Positions 21,797 to 35,258 of a DNA stretch of 64,000 bases are shown here, piece by piece. This DNA comes from an uncultured Gammaproteobacteria bacterium (GTDB lineage Bacteria; Patescibacteriota; Microgenomatia; UBA10105; UBA927): positions 261,408 through 325,407 of the forward strand of contig CAYGFH010000001.1 in assembly GCA_964349125.1 (NCBI GenBank), in the 5' to 3' direction. The translations under genes were made by a program, and so were the position numbers. The stretch's first letter is position 1. Each line of letters opens with the position of its first letter. Under the pieces are notes generated by a model that worked only from the letters and a program-made list of their open reading frames with translations, was not told the origin of the DNA and made no database searches.

Positions 21797-22537
21797 ATGA
21801 ATTATTTATTTGCGATTATTGCCGTAGTTATTGTAAGTCTCTTATCCCTGCTTGGAGCGGGACTTCTCTTGTTTGGACGCATCCATTTAAAGAAGATCAT
21901 GAGCCCACTCATAGCTATATCATCCGGCGTGCTGTTGGGAAGTACATTTTTTGATCTCATACCTGAAAGCCTTGAGCACATGCCAGATACTGCGTTTGTC
22001 TTTATACTCACAGGCATCATAGTATTTTTTTCTCTCGAAAAGCTGTTAAATTGGCACCACCATATAGATGGTGACCATGCGGGAGAAACGAAAGTTCCGG
22101 GATATTTATCACTCATCGGTGACGGTATACATAATTTTATCGACGGCGTAGTTATTGGAGGGGCTTTCCTAGTCTCCATACCACTCGGTATATCTGTCAC
22201 TACAGCGGTGATAGCTCATGAAATACCCCATGAGCTGGCTGACTTTACCATACTGCTACATAGCGGATTTTCTAACAAAAAAGCCCTGCTCTATAATTTT
22301 TTATCTGCCACCACAGCTATTCTGGGAACTGTAACTGTGCTCGTAATGGATTCATTTGCACATTCACTTATTCCCTATCTCATTCCGTTTGCTGCAGGAA
22401 ATTTCCTGTACATAGCCATGAGTGATTTAATTCCAGAGCTGCACCATAAAAACTCCAAACTTATTTCCGTTGTGCAGATCGCACTATTGGTAACAGGTGC
22501 TTTGGCTATTTATATGATGCCGGGGCACGATCATTAG
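21797..22537 (+). CDS. zupT: ZIP-family divalent metal (zinc) transporter
   Basis: ZIP signatures HNFIDG and HEIPHELADF, a His-rich loop (HHHIDGDH) and about 8 transmembrane helices. Confidence 0.8.
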   Translation: MNYLFAIIAVVIVSLLSLLGAGLLLFGRIHLKKIMSPLIAISSGVLLGSTFFDLIPESLEHMPDTAFVFILTGIIVFFSLEKLLNWHHHIDGDHAGETKVPGYLSLIGDGIHNFIDGVVIGGAFLVSIPLGISVTTAVIAHEIPHELADFTILLHSGFSNKKALLYNFLSATTAILGTVTVLVMDSFAHSLIPYLIPFAAGNFLYIAMSDLIPELHHKNSKLISVVQIALLVTGALAIYMMPGHDH

Positions 22538-23718
22538 AACGTAGGCGGCTCATACCCGAATATATATAGTTCTTCCTGCGCTCGGGTAACGCCGGTATAA
22601 AGCCACCGCTTCCAATCATCATCTGACATTTTTCCAAACCGCTCTTCCATCAGTATCACCCTCTTTGCCTGACTACCCTGAGCTTTGTGTACGGTAAGCG
22701 CATACCCAAAATCAAAAAGGTCCCCCTGTTTGGACAGTGCTCTGTTTGGCGTCATGTTTAACGATTCCTGTGCTGTGAATTGATCCTTGTATATAAGACC
22801 GCTGTACACTGACTCTTCCCCATCCATTTGTATTTCAGCTTCGTACCAGGCACTATCTGTTGATCGTATATGCAAAACGGTTCCCAACATGCCATTAAAT
22901 ATTTTCTTCTTGTGATTGTTCCGTAAACAGATCACCCTATCCCCGCTCACGGGCTCGGCGGTCTCAATACCCGCCATCGCGCGCATATGTGCATTTAGTT
23001 TTTTCCGCGTTGCATTAAATCCGCATAAAAGAAGTGTATCGGAGATATCACCTGAGAGCAGTTCACCGAGCGCCTCCTGAGACTCCGAATCTCCCTTATT
23101 GTATTTCACGACACCCTTTCCGTAGCGGCCAACAGGAATGGATCCATGTGTCCTCGCGAGTATTGATACTTCTATGATCGGATTATCTTTCGATTGTCTG
23201 TGAATTTCTTCAAGTTTTAAATCTGTTTTACCCATCAGATTAAAATTTCCCTGTATCGGTGGTAGCTGGCCGTGATCACCGACAACAACCATGGGCTTGC
23301 CGTATCTTTTCAGGTGTTCCCATATCATTCCGTCAACCATCGAGGCCTCATCGATAATGATAAGGTCACATTCGATTTCATCTTTTTGTTTCCATCCGAC
23401 AATTTCTTCACAATCATTTACAACTGGAGAGTATATGAGTGAATGAATTGTTCCCACAGAATCCTTTTTAAACGTGGATAGCGTTCGTTCTATTGTTTGT
23501 GACAGGACCCTGGATGCTTTACCGGTAAAGCTGACGAATGCGACACGAATCCCCGTATGATGCGTTTCCAGTTCCTGCCTAAAATGACCGATCAACGTCG
23601 TTTTTCCCGTACCCGCATACCCACCCAATGTAACATACTGCATTGATCCTTTGTCTTTCTCGTACCATTCGATGAGCGCTGCCAACACGTGTTGCTGATC
23701 TTTTGAGAGGGTTTCCAT
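22534..23718 (-). CDS. RecD/Dda-like superfamily-1 DNA helicase (AAA_30 plus UvrD_C_2-like)
   Basis: Walker A (GYAGTGKT), Walker B (IIIDEASMV), motif III (VVVGDHGQLPPI) and a C-terminal motif (TVHKAQGSQ). Confidence 0.7.
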   Translation of the reverse strand: METLSKDQQHVLAALIEWYEKDKGSMQYVTLGGYAGTGKTTLIGHFRQELETHHTGIRVAFVSFTGKASRVLSQTIERTLSTFKKDSVGTIHSLIYSPVVNDCEEIVGWKQKDEIECDLIIIDEASMVDGMIWEHLKRYGKPMVVVGDHGQLPPIQGNFNLMGKTDLKLEEIHRQSKDNPIIEVSILARTHGSIPVGRYGKGVVKYNKGDSESQEALGELLSGDISDTLLLCGFNATRKKLNAHMRAMAGIETAEPVSGDRVICLRNNHKKKIFNGMLGTVLHIRSTDSAWYEAEIQMDGEESVYSGLIYKDQFTAQESLNMTPNRALSKQGDLFDFGYALTVHKAQGSQAKRVILMEERFGKMSDDDWKRWLYTGVTRAQEELYIFGYEPPTF

Positions 23719-31985: not shown

Positions 31986-32384
31986 TTATGTGGTAATCTC
32001 CCAGATATGGTTATCCGGATCTTTGAAGTATGCGACAGATTGTCCCCAAGACATGTTGGATGGTCCTGAAAATATCTGTATCCCCTTCTCTCTTAACTCT
32101 TCACAGCTTTTTGCTATGTCCTCCACCTGATACGCATATACTGCACCGCCTCCAGAAGTCATATGTGAAGCGGGAAACATGGAAGTTGCCTGATCTTTTT
32201 GAAAAATAGCAAGAAGTGTATCCCCCAGTTTAAAATCCGCGTATTTCCCATCTTGTGAGTTCAGTATAAGTCCTAAGGTATCGCGGTAAAATCGCAGCGA
32301 AACTTCAAAATCGTGTACAAGCAAACAGACAGCATAGAGTGATTTCATACTATGAGTATACTCCCGGCTCTCTCTACTACTCAA
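31986..32384 (-). CDS. VOC-family (glyoxalase/bleomycin resistance) protein
   Basis: 132 aa with the pattern H..........D and the C-terminal HIWEI characteristic of the VOC fold. Confidence 0.65.
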   Translation of the reverse strand: MSSRESREYTHSMKSLYAVCLLVHDFEVSLRFYRDTLGLILNSQDGKYADFKLGDTLLAIFQKDQATSMFPASHMTSGGGAVYAYQVEDIAKSCEELREKGIQIFSGPSNMSWGQSVAYFKDPDNHIWEITT

Positions 32385-32440
32385 TTCCCAATCACGGCTG
32401 TTTTGCGGTATAATAAACTCCTACATATGATCTTGCGGGA

Positions 32441-32766
32441 TCTTTTTTCATACTGAGCAAAGCTGCGAGATCGTATAATGGTAGTACGCATCCCTCTGGA
32501 GGATGTTATCTAGGTTCGAGTCCTAGTCTCGCAGCTTTGCTCAGTAGAAATGGTAGTACGTCCCGATGAACATCGGGATTATCTATGTTCGGGAATGAGG
32601 AGTATTATCGAAGTGGCGATTCCGATAATATGCGGATCATTCATGGGTCTCGCCAATAGCGGACGAACATCGTCCTAGTCCCGCAGCTTTGCTAATATAA
32701 AGCACTACTCAGTAGTACGTCCCGCTAAGAGGAATTATCTAGATTCGAGTCATAGTTACGGAGCAA
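32441..32766 (+). repeat. composite tRNA-Gln-derived repeat, copy A
   Basis: Contains a 5' tRNA stub TGCGGGATC (32441-32449), a full tRNA, two tRNA-3'-half-derived hairpin modules, an inverted repeat (ATTATCGAA...TTCCGATAAT) and a second copy of the tRNA 3' end (TCCTAGTCCCGCAGC). About 85% identical to copy B at 34425-34790. Confidence 0.8.
32464..32534 (+). tRNA. tRNA-Gln (anticodon CUG)
   Basis: Hand-folded cloverleaf: acceptor TGCGAGA/TCTCGCA (7 bp, U1:A72), U8, D-stem GTAT/GTAC, D-loop AATGGTA (GG), anticodon stem CATCC/GGATG, loop CU-CUG-GA, variable TTAT, T-stem CTAGG/CCTAG, T-loop TTCGAGT, discriminator G73. No encoded CCA. Confidence 0.8.
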
Positions 32767-32833
32767 GTTGGTTTTAGGATCAATTTTTATCGCCCCTGAA
32801 TGGAAAGTTCGAACTTTCTGGTATAATTACTTC

Positions 32834-33229
32834 ATGAATGATGACCTAAAAAAGATAATTGAGAGTTCCTCTTTTGTTGTTCACGAGGGTAAGTTTGTTT
32901 ACACCAAAGTAAAAACTGCTCCAGAGATTAACAAGCATTTTCTGGTAAGCAAAGATGCTGATGAAATTACCGTTGTTACTAAAGAAGAGAATCTCACGGA
33001 AATAGACGTTATTGAGAGAAATAAAGATAACTATTCGTTGATTGAATTAAAAGTATCCGTTCCATTTTATTCTGTTGGTTTTCTTGCCACAGTAAGCTCT
33101 GAAATAGCAAAACTGGGAATGAATATACTTATCATTTCTACTTACTCAAAAGATTACATTATGGTTCGAATTGAACATACGGAAAAAGCAATTCAAACAT
33201 TAACGAGTCTGGGATTTTCTAAGAAATAA
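32834..33229 (+). CDS. small ACT-like domain protein (cargo gene 1 of the tRNA-Gln-flanked cassette)
   Basis: The ORF track starts at TTG 32768 inside the repeat; the likely start is ATG 32834 (MNDDLKKII). The C-terminal region (NILIISTYSKDYIMVRIEHTEKAIQTL) resembles ACT_7-type domains. AT-rich codon usage. Confidence 0.45.
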   Translation: MNDDLKKIIESSSFVVHEGKFVYTKVKTAPEINKHFLVSKDADEITVVTKEENLTEIDVIERNKDNYSLIELKVSVPFYSVGFLATVSSEIAKLGMNILIISTYSKDYIMVRIEHTEKAIQTLTSLGFSKK

Positions 33230-33276
33230 GTTCTGATACTTTCTGTCAAAAGAAGTCAAATGTTTTGACCTAAAAA

Positions 33277-33723
33277 ATGGCTATCATGTGGCAAACGATA
33301 GAACCTTTACACAATCAACGTATGCTATCAAAACGATTTCAATTAATTTTAGTTTTATCTTTACTTCTCAACTACCTTCATGGTTTTGAATGTATCCTGA
33401 CAAAGTTTTACGACCTTCAGCCAAATTTTTATTTCTTTACTGAATACTTACATAGTATTCATGAGAGCGTTTATTTTGTTTTCCATGGAACCTTTTGGGT
33501 ATTCATCCTCTTGGCATTCTTTTTACTCAAAGGTGGGAAGTGGATTTTTATTCCACTTGCATTGTATGGATCTGTTTTCTTTACTGAGTTTCACCACTTT
33601 GTTAGAGGAGTATTGATGATGAGCTACTACCCCGGAATGATTACTTCATTGTTTTTCCCAATACTTGGAGTTTTTTACTGGAAAGAAGTCTTACAGCTTT
33701 GGAAAAAGGTTTCAAAGAGCTAG
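33277..33723 (+). CDS. small integral membrane protein (HXXEE-like motifs)
   Basis: 148 aa with four transmembrane helices and motifs LHGFEC and EFHHF. AT-rich. Confidence 0.4.
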   Translation: MAIMWQTIEPLHNQRMLSKRFQLILVLSLLLNYLHGFECILTKFYDLQPNFYFFTEYLHSIHESVYFVFHGTFWVFILLAFFLLKGGKWIFIPLALYGSVFFTEFHHFVRGVLMMSYYPGMITSLFFPILGVFYWKEVLQLWKKVSKS

Positions 33724-33751
33724 ATAATAGGTTCATCAGGTGGAGTAAAAC

Positions 33752-34378
33752 ATGAAATACTATCTTTCATCATATAAACTAGGCAACAGTACTAAAAAAC
33801 TTGAAGCGTGGGTAGCAAACACCTCTCGCAAATTTGCATATATTCCAAATGCTCGCGATTTCACCAATGCTGACCCAGAAAAGAAAAGGCACGACACAGA
33901 AGAAGACATGAATCAACTCCATAAATTAGGAATAGAGGTGGAGTTATTAAATTTAAAAGATTATTTTGATAGACAAGTAGAATTAAAACGAAAATTGGAT
34001 TCTCTAAACGGAGTTTATATAAGTGGCGGAAATTCATTTGTTCTTCGGCAGGCAATGAAACTAAGTGGACTAGATAAATTAATTTTGGAAATGAAGAGTA
34101 GAGACGATTTTATTTACATCGGCTATAGTGCTGCAGTCTGTGTTTTATGCTCTAACCTGAAATACTATGCCATCACCGACGATGCAAATGATTTTCCATA
34201 TCCACAACTTAAAAAACAGGTTTGGAATGGCTTGGGAGTTTTGGAATATATTTTTGAGCCGCATTATCATTCTGACCACCCCGAATCTGCTAGTACAGAT
34301 AAAGAGATACAGAAACTAATCGAGGACAAAGTATTGTTTAAGGCATTCAAGGATGGAGAGGTTTTAATAATTGAATAG
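33752..34378 (+). CDS. peptidase S51 (dipeptidase E / cyanophycinase-like) family protein
   Basis: VYISGGNSFVLRQAM and IGYSAAVCV (Ser nucleophile context) are typical of the PepE/S51 class-I glutamine-amidotransferase-like fold. Preceded by a GGTGGAG RBS. Confidence 0.7.
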   Translation: MKYYLSSYKLGNSTKKLEAWVANTSRKFAYIPNARDFTNADPEKKRHDTEEDMNQLHKLGIEVELLNLKDYFDRQVELKRKLDSLNGVYISGGNSFVLRQAMKLSGLDKLILEMKSRDDFIYIGYSAAVCVLCSNLKYYAITDDANDFPYPQLKKQVWNGLGVLEYIFEPHYHSDHPESASTDKEIQKLIEDKVLFKAFKDGEVLIIE

Positions 34379-34424
34379 ATATTTATAGGATCGAACTGCT
34401 CCAGGCCTGTGCGATCAACACTGT

Positions 34425-34790
34425 TCAGTAATACGTCCCGCTTAGCGGGATTATCTGGGTTCGTTTAAAATTGAATACATATTGCAAAGCTGCGGGATTC
34501 GTATTTTTGTTTAGTGAGCAGCGCTGCGGGATCGTATAATGGTAGTACGCATCCCTCTGGAGGATGTTATCTAGGTTCGAGTCCTAGTCCCGCAGCACTG
34601 CTCAGTAGTACGCCCCGACGGATGCGTCGGGATTATCTAGGTTCGGGAATGAGGAGCATTATCGAAACTGCGATTTCGATAATATGCAGATCATTCATGA
34701 AAGCGCGAAGCGCTGAACATCGTCCTAGTCCCGCAGCACTACTCAGTAGTACGCCCTGATCTAGATTACACTTAAGAGATGCCACTTGAT
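34425..34790 (+). repeat. composite tRNA-Gln-derived repeat, copy B
   Basis: Has the same module order as copy A plus an extra upstream hairpin module (34425-34465). Includes a 5' tRNA stub (CAAAGCTGCGGGATTCGTAT, 34478-34497), a full tRNA, a perfect 10-bp inverted repeat (ATTATCGAAA-6 nt-TTTCGATAAT, 34658-34683) and a second tRNA 3'-end copy (TCCTAGTCCCGCAGC, 34724-34738). Confidence 0.8.
34525..34595 (+). tRNA. tRNA-Gln (anticodon CUG), second copy
   Basis: Identical to the 32464 copy except for a compensatory change in the acceptor stem (G5:C68 here, A5:U68 in copy A). The cloverleaf folds by hand. Confidence 0.8.
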
Positions 34791-35258
34791 TTGGTTTTTC
34801 TTTTTTCATTAAATATCTTTGTACATTATCGCACTGATATTCCTCAATCCATTCAATACAATATTTACCATATGACAACATCAGAAAAAGTAAAAAACAT
34901 GCTTTTTTGGGGATTTATACTCTGGCTGGTCGGGTATATTGCAGGAATCGTATTATTTTTTATTGTACCCAAGGAGTATATCGGTTGGATTATTACCCCA
35001 CTGGCTACCATATTTATTATCTGGGTATTGATGCGCAAGGTTAAGAGGCCGGAGTTGATGTGCTACTTTGGAACCGGACTCATTTGGACTGTCATGGCTG
35101 TCGTATTGGATTACCTGTTTAATGTCGTTCTGTTTAAAATTGGAAATTCGTATTACCAGCCGGATGTTTTCTTATATTATATTCTCACGTTCACCCTCCC
35201 GATTGCCGTAGGATACTGGAAATATACACATAAATCCCCAAAGGCAAAACTGTTTTAG
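34779..35258 (+). CDS. hypothetical integral membrane protein
   Basis: 159 aa with four transmembrane helices. Confidence 0.45.
   Translation: MPLDLVFLFSLNIFVHYRTDIPQSIQYNIYHMTTSEKVKNMLFWGFILWLVGYIAGIVLFFIVPKEYIGWIITPLATIFIIWVLMRKVKRPELMCYFGTGLIWTVMAVVLDYLFNVVLFKIGNSYYQPDVFLYYILTFTLPIAVGYWKYTHKSPKAKLF

Follow-up and report, generated by a model that had tools for sequence, protein, structure and literature searches.

Live tRNA-Gln genes enclosed by disabled tRNA-Gln copies in a Microgenomates-type bacterium

We analyzed a family of small hairpin-bearing modules in a stretch of 64,000 nucleotides from an uncultured bacterium (contig CAYGFH010000001.1, positions 261,408 to 325,407), here called the window, whose own numbering is used throughout unless a relative is named. 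The original prediction had described these modules as at least five copies sharing short motifs, derived from tRNA but with the anticodon arm replaced by variable stem-loops. These modules prove to be 3' parts of tRNA-Gln(CUG) copies that have been disabled and that surround a live tRNA-Gln(CUG) gene. The interval 32430-34775 consists of two complexes, A and B, all on the forward strand and each with one live tRNA-Gln, and the order of parts is the same in both. A promoter-like site comes first, then the 5' acceptor strand left from the old gene (a0), and then the live tRNA between two complementary 13-nt arms; the series closes with the remainder of the old gene, that is, a D-arm, a GC hairpin in place of the anticodon arm, a T-arm with a structured insert in its loop and the closing 3' strands (c0). 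Since a0, the module and c0 are parts of one tRNA, each complex represents one disabled tRNA-Gln, the shell, that carries the live gene in its D-loop. The two live genes, the T-stem and acceptor strands that follow the inserts and the 5' acceptor fragments had all been missed in the first reading.

The live genes were called as tRNA-Gln(CUG) at 32464-32535 and 34525-34596 (ARAGORN; about 60 bits with the Rfam tRNA model). The gene of complex A (32464-32534; RF00005, 60.5 bits) has the acceptor stem TGCGAGA/TCTCGCA, and the CCA end is not encoded. Its candidate driver is a promoter-like site, TTCCCA-18-TATAAT (32385-32414, 10 of 12 matches), of which the TATAAT context is kept in the relatives L024 and L006. 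The acceptor helix is prolonged by a 5' extension, TACTGAGCAAAGC (32451-32463), pairing with a 3' extension, GCTTTGCTCAGTA (32534-32546), that includes the discriminator G73, itself paired with C-1. Cassette B (34512-34607) is built in the same manner from the 5' extension TAGTGAGCAGCGC, the live tRNA (34525-34595) and the 3' extension GCACTGCTCAGTA. The inverted repeats around the live tRNAs are 20 nt long each, with a complementarity of 100% in A and 90% in B, and acceptor stem and 13-nt extension form a continuous 20-bp helix around each live tRNA, in A with 20 of 20 positions paired. No 3-nt bulges are present in the inverted repeats of A and B or in the table of extensions.

In complex A the outer copy begins with a0, comprising the 5' acceptor strand and positions 8-9 (TGCGGGATC, 32434-32442), and continues as a T-rich linker up to 32450; in the minimum-energy fold this strand pairs with 32679-32685. 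Beyond the live tRNA, module 1 (M1, 32544-32591, 52 bits) contains a complete D-arm, GTAGAAATGGTAGTACG, the hairpin, a variable region, the T-stem 5' strand and TTCG. Its hairpin TCCCGATG-AA-CATCGGGA is intact and takes the place of the anticodon arm, and the module reads TTATCTATGTTCG, in departure from the motif first given for the family. The T-loop is then split by a 78-nt insert, and c0' (32670-32693) completes the T-loop and adds the 3' strands of T-stem (CCTAG) and acceptor (TCCCGCA), followed by G73 and CTTTGCT. Complex B is introduced by a T-loop-type linker, TTTAAAATTGAATACATATT, an extension-like GCAAAGC, a0(B) with TGCGGGATTCGTA (34491-34503) and a T-rich linker (34464-34511 in all); the comparable linker of L006 reads ATTGAAAATATACATATGT-TAGCAAAG. 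The cassette is followed by module 4 (M4, 34605-34645, full span 34597-34645, 49.6 bits) with GTAGTACG, the hairpin CCCGACG-GATG-CGTCGGG and TTATCTAGGTTCG, and then by the 74-nt T-loop insert B and c0 (together 34646-34736), whose downstream flank matches that of the single shell in L024. After their inserts M1 and M4 both resume with TCGTCCTAGTCCCGCAG, the T-stem 3' and acceptor 3' strands, and the sequence TCGT-CCTAG-TCCCGCA-G completes in turn the T-loop, the T-stem and the acceptor stem with their 3' strands and ends in the discriminator.

The remaining modules belong to outer layers. Module 2 (M2, 32703-32764, 54.6 bits) is a decayed remnant made of an extension-like CACTACTCAGTA, GTAGTACG, the broken hairpin TCCCGCTAAGAGGAA, a mutated, uninterrupted T-arm and a degenerate acceptor 3' strand, and it retains both GTAGTACG and TTATCTAGATTCG. 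Module 3 (M3, 34419-34463, 57.6 bits) is the 5' part of an outermost pseudo-tRNA up to the T-loop TTCG, with the hairpin TCCCGC-TTA-GCGGGA, and is homologous to pseudo-tRNA 1 of L006. Module 5 (M5, 34737-34775, 12.7 bits) is a shortened outer remnant that reads CACTACTCAGTAGTACG and then decays, with neither hairpin nor T part; a homologous remnant is present in L024. Sequence copies are thus found at or within a few bases of the places first given for them, as four full copies and one stub, and with three intact hairpins with loops of 2-4 nt. In these three the sequence varies while pairing is kept, as had been claimed for all, but the hairpin of M2 is broken and M5 has none. The modules are copies of parts of the neighbouring tRNA-Gln, so that their derivation from tRNA and the replacement of the anticodon arm were correctly recognized. 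The same holds for the statement that they do not act as tRNAs, as neither ARAGORN nor the Rfam tRNA model calls a canonical tRNA in any module, and only the two live genes are called. The 5' acceptor strand and D-arm that were believed to be missing do exist: the D-arm is complete in M1, and the acceptor strands lie upstream of the intervening live tRNA.

Allowing up to two mismatches, TTATCTAGGTTCG occurs seven times against 1.3 expected, a count reached in none of 100 shuffles, and CCTAGTCCCGCAG has four hits against 0.46 expected. A module covariance model built from nine aligned modules and run over the whole 64 kb with filters off found the four full modules (50-58 bits), the two live tRNAs (34.5 bits) and the stub (12.7 bits), and no further copies outside the two complexes, so that the additional copies sought with such a model did not turn up in the window. 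Two ENA assemblies and a Logan contig of a different run have exactly the same arrangement, and this agreement across independent assemblies shows that it is not an assembly artefact. Note that open reading frames (ORFs) of 58-82 amino acids run over complex B (34633-34881 on the reverse and 34514-34759 on the forward strand), overlapping tRNA, insert and shell; they are almost certainly spurious, and are annotated as genes in public assemblies (L001/L002, 4882-5130).

The window encodes a bacterial GluRS, MutS/MutL and an LCP-family protein, and the adjacent glyoxalase has homologues under the names Candidatus Gottesman-, Woese- and Pacebacteria. These bacterial genes and homologue names identify the window as belonging to Microgenomates-type bacteria of the Candidate Phyla Radiation (CPR, Patescibacteria). 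An archaeal origin with bulge-helix-bulge (BHB)-type processing, considered, with Methanosarcina as the candidate, in view of a MEDS domain, a YaaH transporter and 42% GC, was ruled out by GluRS, MutS/MutL, the LCP protein, the names of the homologues and matches to CPR genomes. Three metagenome-assembled genomes among the relatives (L006, L008 and L009) are titled 'uncultured Gammaproteobacteria', and encode proteins 47-80% identical to those of the window in partly syntenic order; these taxonomic titles are probably wrong. Elsewhere in the window, a 394-residue ORF on the reverse strand (22534-23718) partly matches RecD2 helicase as well as the helicase region of TraA relaxases.

Relatives were collected from scans of public genomes and metagenomes with a tRNA-Gln/module pattern and from the loci around protein homologues, and they originate from different studies. 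The metagenome scan with the tRNA pattern yielded 11 loci, six of them with extensions or nests (including L013, L016, L018, L021 and L022, of which L013 and L016 duplicate L004), while the hairpin pattern gave no hits in the metagenomes. Plain tRNA-Gln genes are found in L005, L008, L010, L012, L023 and L037, and L025 has a short, imperfect extension of about 7 bp only. The nested loci hold one to three layers each, with insertion points in the D-loop or the T-loop. L024 has the design of complex A. In L011, from Gottesmanbacteria, a0, helix, tRNA, helix, D-arm, the hairpin TCCCGC-TTT-GCGGGA, a T-arm with a different, GC-rich insert and c0 follow each other. L006 and L018 consist of three layers. 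Innermost is the live tRNA, which has a helix and linkers of its own and occupies the T-loop of a pseudo-tRNA; this pseudo-tRNA has one hairpin in the D-loop and another as anticodon arm, and is itself placed inside the D-loop of the outer copy. Simpler cases are L004 with its duplicates L013 and L016 and L026-L028 (a0 and helix only), L021 and L022 (helix and a downstream T-arm with two hairpins) and L009 (a downstream T-arm fragment with an insert of the same family as in the window).

Some further observations concern these loci. Small GIY-YIG nuclease genes lie directly 3' of the un-nested tRNA-Gln in L008 (after 7419) and L023 (after about 400), and a GIY-YIG ORF in L027 (4354-4623) is missing from the near-identical L026 and L028; these could be mobile nuclease genes tied to tRNA loci. 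In L018 the segment 965-1075 holds three tandem units of 36 nt, each composed of the 3' extension, AATAAAA, the 3' part of the T-loop and the 3' strands of T-stem and acceptor, so that 3' pieces of a shell can evidently amplify in tandem. Upstream of a0 the leader of L004, L013 and L016 (about 6018-6040 in L004) forms a hairpin, TTGCGGG-tgcatcat-CCGCAA, in which two acceptor strands are closed by a loop, and which looks like a fully collapsed tRNA shell. The loci around six glyoxalase homologues (P0007, P0008, P0012, P0013, P0016 and P0043) are not syntenic with the present one. On the P0012 contigs the distance from the glyoxalase gene to a nested tRNA-Gln is about 2.4 kb; no new complexes came from the other five homologues. 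A tRNA-Glu in L029 shows neither extension nor nest.

Where a0 could be placed relative to a TATAAT box, it begins 7-9 nt after it in four nested loci (L004, L011, L018 and L026) and 18-19 nt after it in the window, L024 and L006, and the un-nested tRNA-Gln gene of L005 starts 11 nt past its box. By this similarity of spacing a0 is the start of the original resident gene. Its end corresponds to tRNA positions 9-13, and the tRNA sequence is taken up again by the module in the D-loop or D-stem, so that the two together make up about one tRNA; insertions in the T-loop follow TTC or TTCG and resume at TCG. In every genome in which copies were found, module copies outside the window occur at tRNA-Gln loci only. 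This confinement to tRNA-Gln complexes, together with the lack of further copies in the 64 kb, sets them apart from dispersed repeats of the repetitive extragenic palindrome type and lends no support to the suggested family resembling miniature inverted-repeat transposable elements.

As a single RNA strand, a complex is predicted to fold into one cloverleaf nested in another. This shape is the minimum-energy fold for A, B and L024, with z scores of -5.7 to -6.5, and none of 200 shuffles was as stable; the two complexes of the window reach -107.7 and -110.5 kcal/mol (z -6.5). The hairpin arms TCCCGC/GCGGGA are identical to acceptor strands, and in the predicted folds of L011 and L006 a0 pairs with the 5' arm of the hairpin and its 3' arm with c0, an alternative that leads to a minihelix of acceptor and T-arm bearing the insert. 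One might therefore regard the shell pieces as small RNAs in their own right, such as an insert-presenting minihelix released by RNase P and RNase Z, and the identity of the arms, the folds of L011 and L006 and the conserved structure of the insert are in line with this. As the local hairpin is preferred in the predicted folds of window A, window B and L024, however, and as there are two unrelated types of insert and no match to an Rfam family, we consider such a role very improbable. The hairpins with the adjoining UUAUCU might alternatively be intrinsic terminators of the tRNA gene, and a terminator scan indeed flags one of them (32560-32579). Yet the run of U is weak, the number of scan hits is about that of shuffled sequence (two found, 1.6 expected), and the hairpin recurs in the nests of L006 and L018 upstream of the live tRNA, a position in which termination would do harm. 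On the scan count and the position in L006 and L018 the terminator explanation was set aside as very unlikely.

Pairing is kept up in the helix that holds the live tRNA. Across nine cassettes 93% of the cells in the extension-plus-acceptor helix are paired and 10 of its 20 pairs have changed on both sides, values that none of 500 shuffles reached, and shifting the 3' partner abolishes the signal in the extension helix. In L018 the extension of the inner cassette, GTCATCACCGC/GCAGTGATGAC, is unrelated and yet remains paired. The outer acceptor covaries as well, from TGCGAGA/TCTCGCA in L024 to TGCGGGA/TCCCGCA in window A. In the module hairpins the base TCCCG/CGGGA is invariant while the tops vary, and pairing is complete in seven of the nine modules aligned. 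Between L024 and the window, helix and tRNA are 98% and the shell parts 84-88% identical, as compared to 61% in the next intergenic stretch and 55-72% at the third codon positions of the flanking genes, so that the shell is not drifting freely.

The T-loop insert provides a second case. Insert A (32592-32669) is structured, with a P1 helix GAAUGA/UCAUUC, a GGA/GGA internal loop, a P2 hairpin and a second hairpin, and this fold is common to window A, window B, L024 and L009. Insert A is 86% identical to that of L024, and compensatory double changes are seen in nine of 25 insert pairs, including those in the distant L009, whose proteins are 47-66% identical to those of the window. The symmetric 3x3 purine internal loop between P1 and P2 (32612-32614 with 32647-32649; 34666-34668 with 34697-34699) places GGA opposite GGA, or AGA in copy B, and is kept in the four loci; it could be a protein-binding motif. 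Two unrelated types of insert exist, one beginning with GGAATGAGGAG and the other, found in L011 and L006, with CCCGCCTGC. Rfam 15 returned only tRNA, both at gathering thresholds over the window and at E values up to 10 for 32300-34900, and no other family reached the gathering score in the window or E<0.05 in the region; two sub-threshold SpF41 matches in the region are the live tRNAs themselves. A known ribozyme or RNA family in the insert was rejected for want of an Rfam match, and its derivation from a collapsed tRNA cassette because local alignments were not clearly above shuffles, except for a trivially shared 3' junction.

These data have to be set against the view that the complexes are neutral debris, left by tandem or Campbell-type duplications of tRNA-Gln, partial deletions, template-switched hairpins and gene conversion, and kept since most deletions would destroy an essential tRNA. 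Several features agree with it: a recent duplication by recombination in the window, the 36-nt tandem repeats of 3' pieces in L018, the visible decay of the outer layers M2 and M5, the mosaic of insert halves between A, B and L024 that indicates conversion, and a weak resemblance of the inserts to pieces of tRNA or cassette, with scores that are not significant. Drift does not account for the excess of shell conservation over silent sites, nor for helices that are kept by compensatory changes as far as L009 in an insert that has no donor in the live tRNA. The recurrence of a0 and module as complementary parts of one tRNA at several independent loci, and a hairpin base that is invariant across genomes with proteins only about 55% identical, likewise speak against it, and we judge neutral debris to be unlikely.

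The duplication itself can be followed by comparison with L024, the closest relative found, whose glyoxalase is 85% identical. There a single complex lies between the glyoxalase gene and a membrane-protein gene, and the same two genes flank A on the left and B on the right. The window holds an extra 2,061 bp, equal to the repeat spacing, that comprise M2, three genes, M3 and the second complex, so that a direct repeat of tRNA sequence, A and B, bounds the inserted DNA. The three cargo genes (32834-34378, forward strand) encode an ACT-domain protein (32834-33229), an HXXEE-like membrane protein (33277-33723) and a peptidase of family S51 (33752-34378) according to gene calls and Pfam, are not found at this position in L024, and are flanked by M2 and M3, direct repeats with 82% identity. 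The stretch 32679-32692 (c0' and extension) is 100% complementary over 14 nt to 34484-34497 (extension and a0(B)), and a0(A) and c0(B) carry the flanks of the single shell in L024. Flank complementarity and the position of the L024 flanks point to a single crossover of the resident complex with circular DNA, in which a 2,061-bp molecule with its own three-layer complex and three genes recombined, Campbell-style, into a single resident complex. To judge by the sequences compared, the complexes double as recombination sites, and the recombination substrate that had been among the first proposals is in this respect borne out by the 2,061-bp insertion between two complexes and by the M2 and M3 repeats around the three genes. 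The islet is neighboured by genes for glyoxalase, YaaH, MEDS, DUF1801, DUF2200 and a P-type ATPase. In L037 an S51 gene (1932-2636) 82% identical to that of the islet lies 5 nt 3' of a plain tRNA-Gln(CUG) of different sequence, a second genome in which S51 and tRNA-Gln are neighbours, which hints that the DNA adjoining tRNA-Gln is what gets exchanged. In L038 a 74% identical homologue has no tRNA nearby.

An insertion bounded by direct repeats of tRNA sequence raises the question of classical attachment-site (att) scars, where integrase elements would have entered tRNA-Gln serially, each duplicating a part of it, and were later lost. Besides the 2,061-bp insertion and the repeats around the three genes, the break points in the T-loop fit such a history, as they coincide with a known sublocation of integrases in tRNA genes. 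A recombinase element in the tRNA-Thr of the archaeon Caldiarchaeum has also left a 5' tRNA fragment 1.8 kb upstream of the replacement gene (PMC3293823). The complexes share with such duplications by integrative elements the partial copies beside an intact gene, the inserted DNA between direct repeats of a tRNA and the stranded 5' fragment. They differ in that no tyrosine or serine recombinase is present in the cargo islet or within about 4 kb on either side, that the inserted unit may be of about 100 nt, a tRNA and its inverted repeat alone, and that the old gene encloses the new one, in a CPR bacterium. An att scar is a faithful copy of the 3' end of a tRNA; in the complexes unrelated hairpins stand in for the anticodon arm, the loops are capped or filled with structured inserts, 74-78 nt divide the T-loop, and there are 5' fragments as well. 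The live tRNA lies within a covarying inverted repeat, the cassettes of about 100 nt are devoid of genes, and the shell has been conserved. Viral contigs gave no hits with the tRNA/module pattern or the cassette pattern, and a single hit with the hairpin pattern (L039) that lacks tRNA-like flanks and is probably due to chance. In the classical sense in which they were first put forward, serial att scars thus do not fit the lack of an integrase nearby, the 5' fragments, the replaced arms and the shell conservation, and they seem to us improbable.

Other known arrangements resemble the complexes in part. Disrupted tRNA genes of archaea and algae contain introns at non-canonical positions or are split or permuted (PMC4033280, PMC3978253). 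They have in common with the complexes the interruption in the region of D- or T-loop and the complementary leaders and trailers that form helices around tRNA parts. However, they are spliced at a bulge-helix-bulge into a working tRNA, while here the helix is continuous and without bulges, the host is a bacterium, the joining of the outer pieces gives no anticodon and the working tRNA is the insert. Bacterial rRNA intervening sequences are extended stem-loops in hairpin loops that RNase III excises without re-ligation. The complexes likewise present a long, near-perfect helix, 20 bp and tRNA-bearing, inside the D- or T-loop of a structured RNA gene, and by analogy the 20-bp helix is plausible as an RNase III substrate; the tip of the helix, unlike in rRNA, is an essential tRNA and the host molecule a dead one. 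Finally, tRNA-like handles and scaffolds, namely those of the mascRNA type, plant mitochondrial t-elements, the tRNA-like domain of tmRNA and YrlA, also combine tRNA-shaped folds without a decoding anticodon with other RNA, but the shell described here is clearly a recent copy of the neighbouring tRNA-Gln and not an independent family. None of the systems compared has a live tRNA inside disabled copies of itself, and we found no description of such nesting in the searchable full-text literature on CPR or other bacteria, the coverage of which is incomplete.

The explanation towards which we lean, with modest confidence, is the serial insertion of a helix-flanked tRNA-Gln cassette, with the dead pieces kept folded and the complexes serving also as recombination sites. 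The cassette would repeatedly enter the resident gene, either in the D-loop after positions 9-13 or in the T-loop after U54-U55-C56/G57, and each insertion would kill the resident copy yet supply its replacement; it would be tolerated because the cassette brings a working copy under the resident promoter. Repetition would stack layers, the older of which decay outward. All layers are probably present in one transcript, which would contain strands identical to stretches of the live tRNA or complementary to them, and selection may for this reason keep every dead piece locally paired: the extension helix would tie the ends of the live tRNA to each other, a0 would pair with c0, and hairpins would cap the D-loop, stand in for the anticodon arm and fill the T-loop. 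The live tRNA could then fold and be freed by RNase P and RNase Z, perhaps after RNase III has cut the 20-bp helix. The direct repeats between layers would make most simple deletions lethal and thereby slow the loss of the shell.

Several points weigh against this explanation. The sample is small, with about 10 independent tRNA-Gln loci, and an enzyme or mechanism for cassette insertion was not found. The maps produced by nested insertion and by tandem copies with deletions are formally similar. Co-transcription and processing of the complex are inferred, and in L009 the tRNA is separated by a canonical terminator from the T-arm fragment downstream, so that this fragment, though conserved, may be outside the tRNA transcript. 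Outer stems contain mismatches, in the T-stems of window A and L011 and in the acceptor of pseudo-tRNA 1 of L006, and the outermost layers (M2, M5 and the outer layer of L018) have decayed as is expected for fossils. Template switching at quasi-palindromes can also yield perfect palindromes neutrally, and the tRNA-like parts could be homogenised, without function, by gene conversion with the live tRNA; such conversion could not maintain the hairpin or the insert. A more far-reaching version, a new kind of selfish or self-renewing gene architecture in which a tRNA-Gln cassette of about 100 nt bracketed by an inverted repeat homes into the loops of its own gene, replaces the function it destroys and so builds up nested genes, with the shells exapted as a folded precursor scaffold, possibly a source of minihelix-borne small RNAs, and as portable homology by which CPR bacteria acquire genes, appears to us rather doubtful.

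If serial insertion of the cassette is true, tRNA genes of the ultra-small CPR bacteria could be rebuilt by a replacement copy inserted into the old one, a mode of turnover that we did not find in the searchable literature. The complexes would then be a natural case of selection on the folding of a non-functional RNA, insulating an essential RNA in the same transcript, and for annotation they would be sites where spurious ORFs are called and where assemblers break contigs. In genomes with very few mobile elements, the conserved tRNA-Gln complex would moreover constitute a landing pad for the gain of genes.

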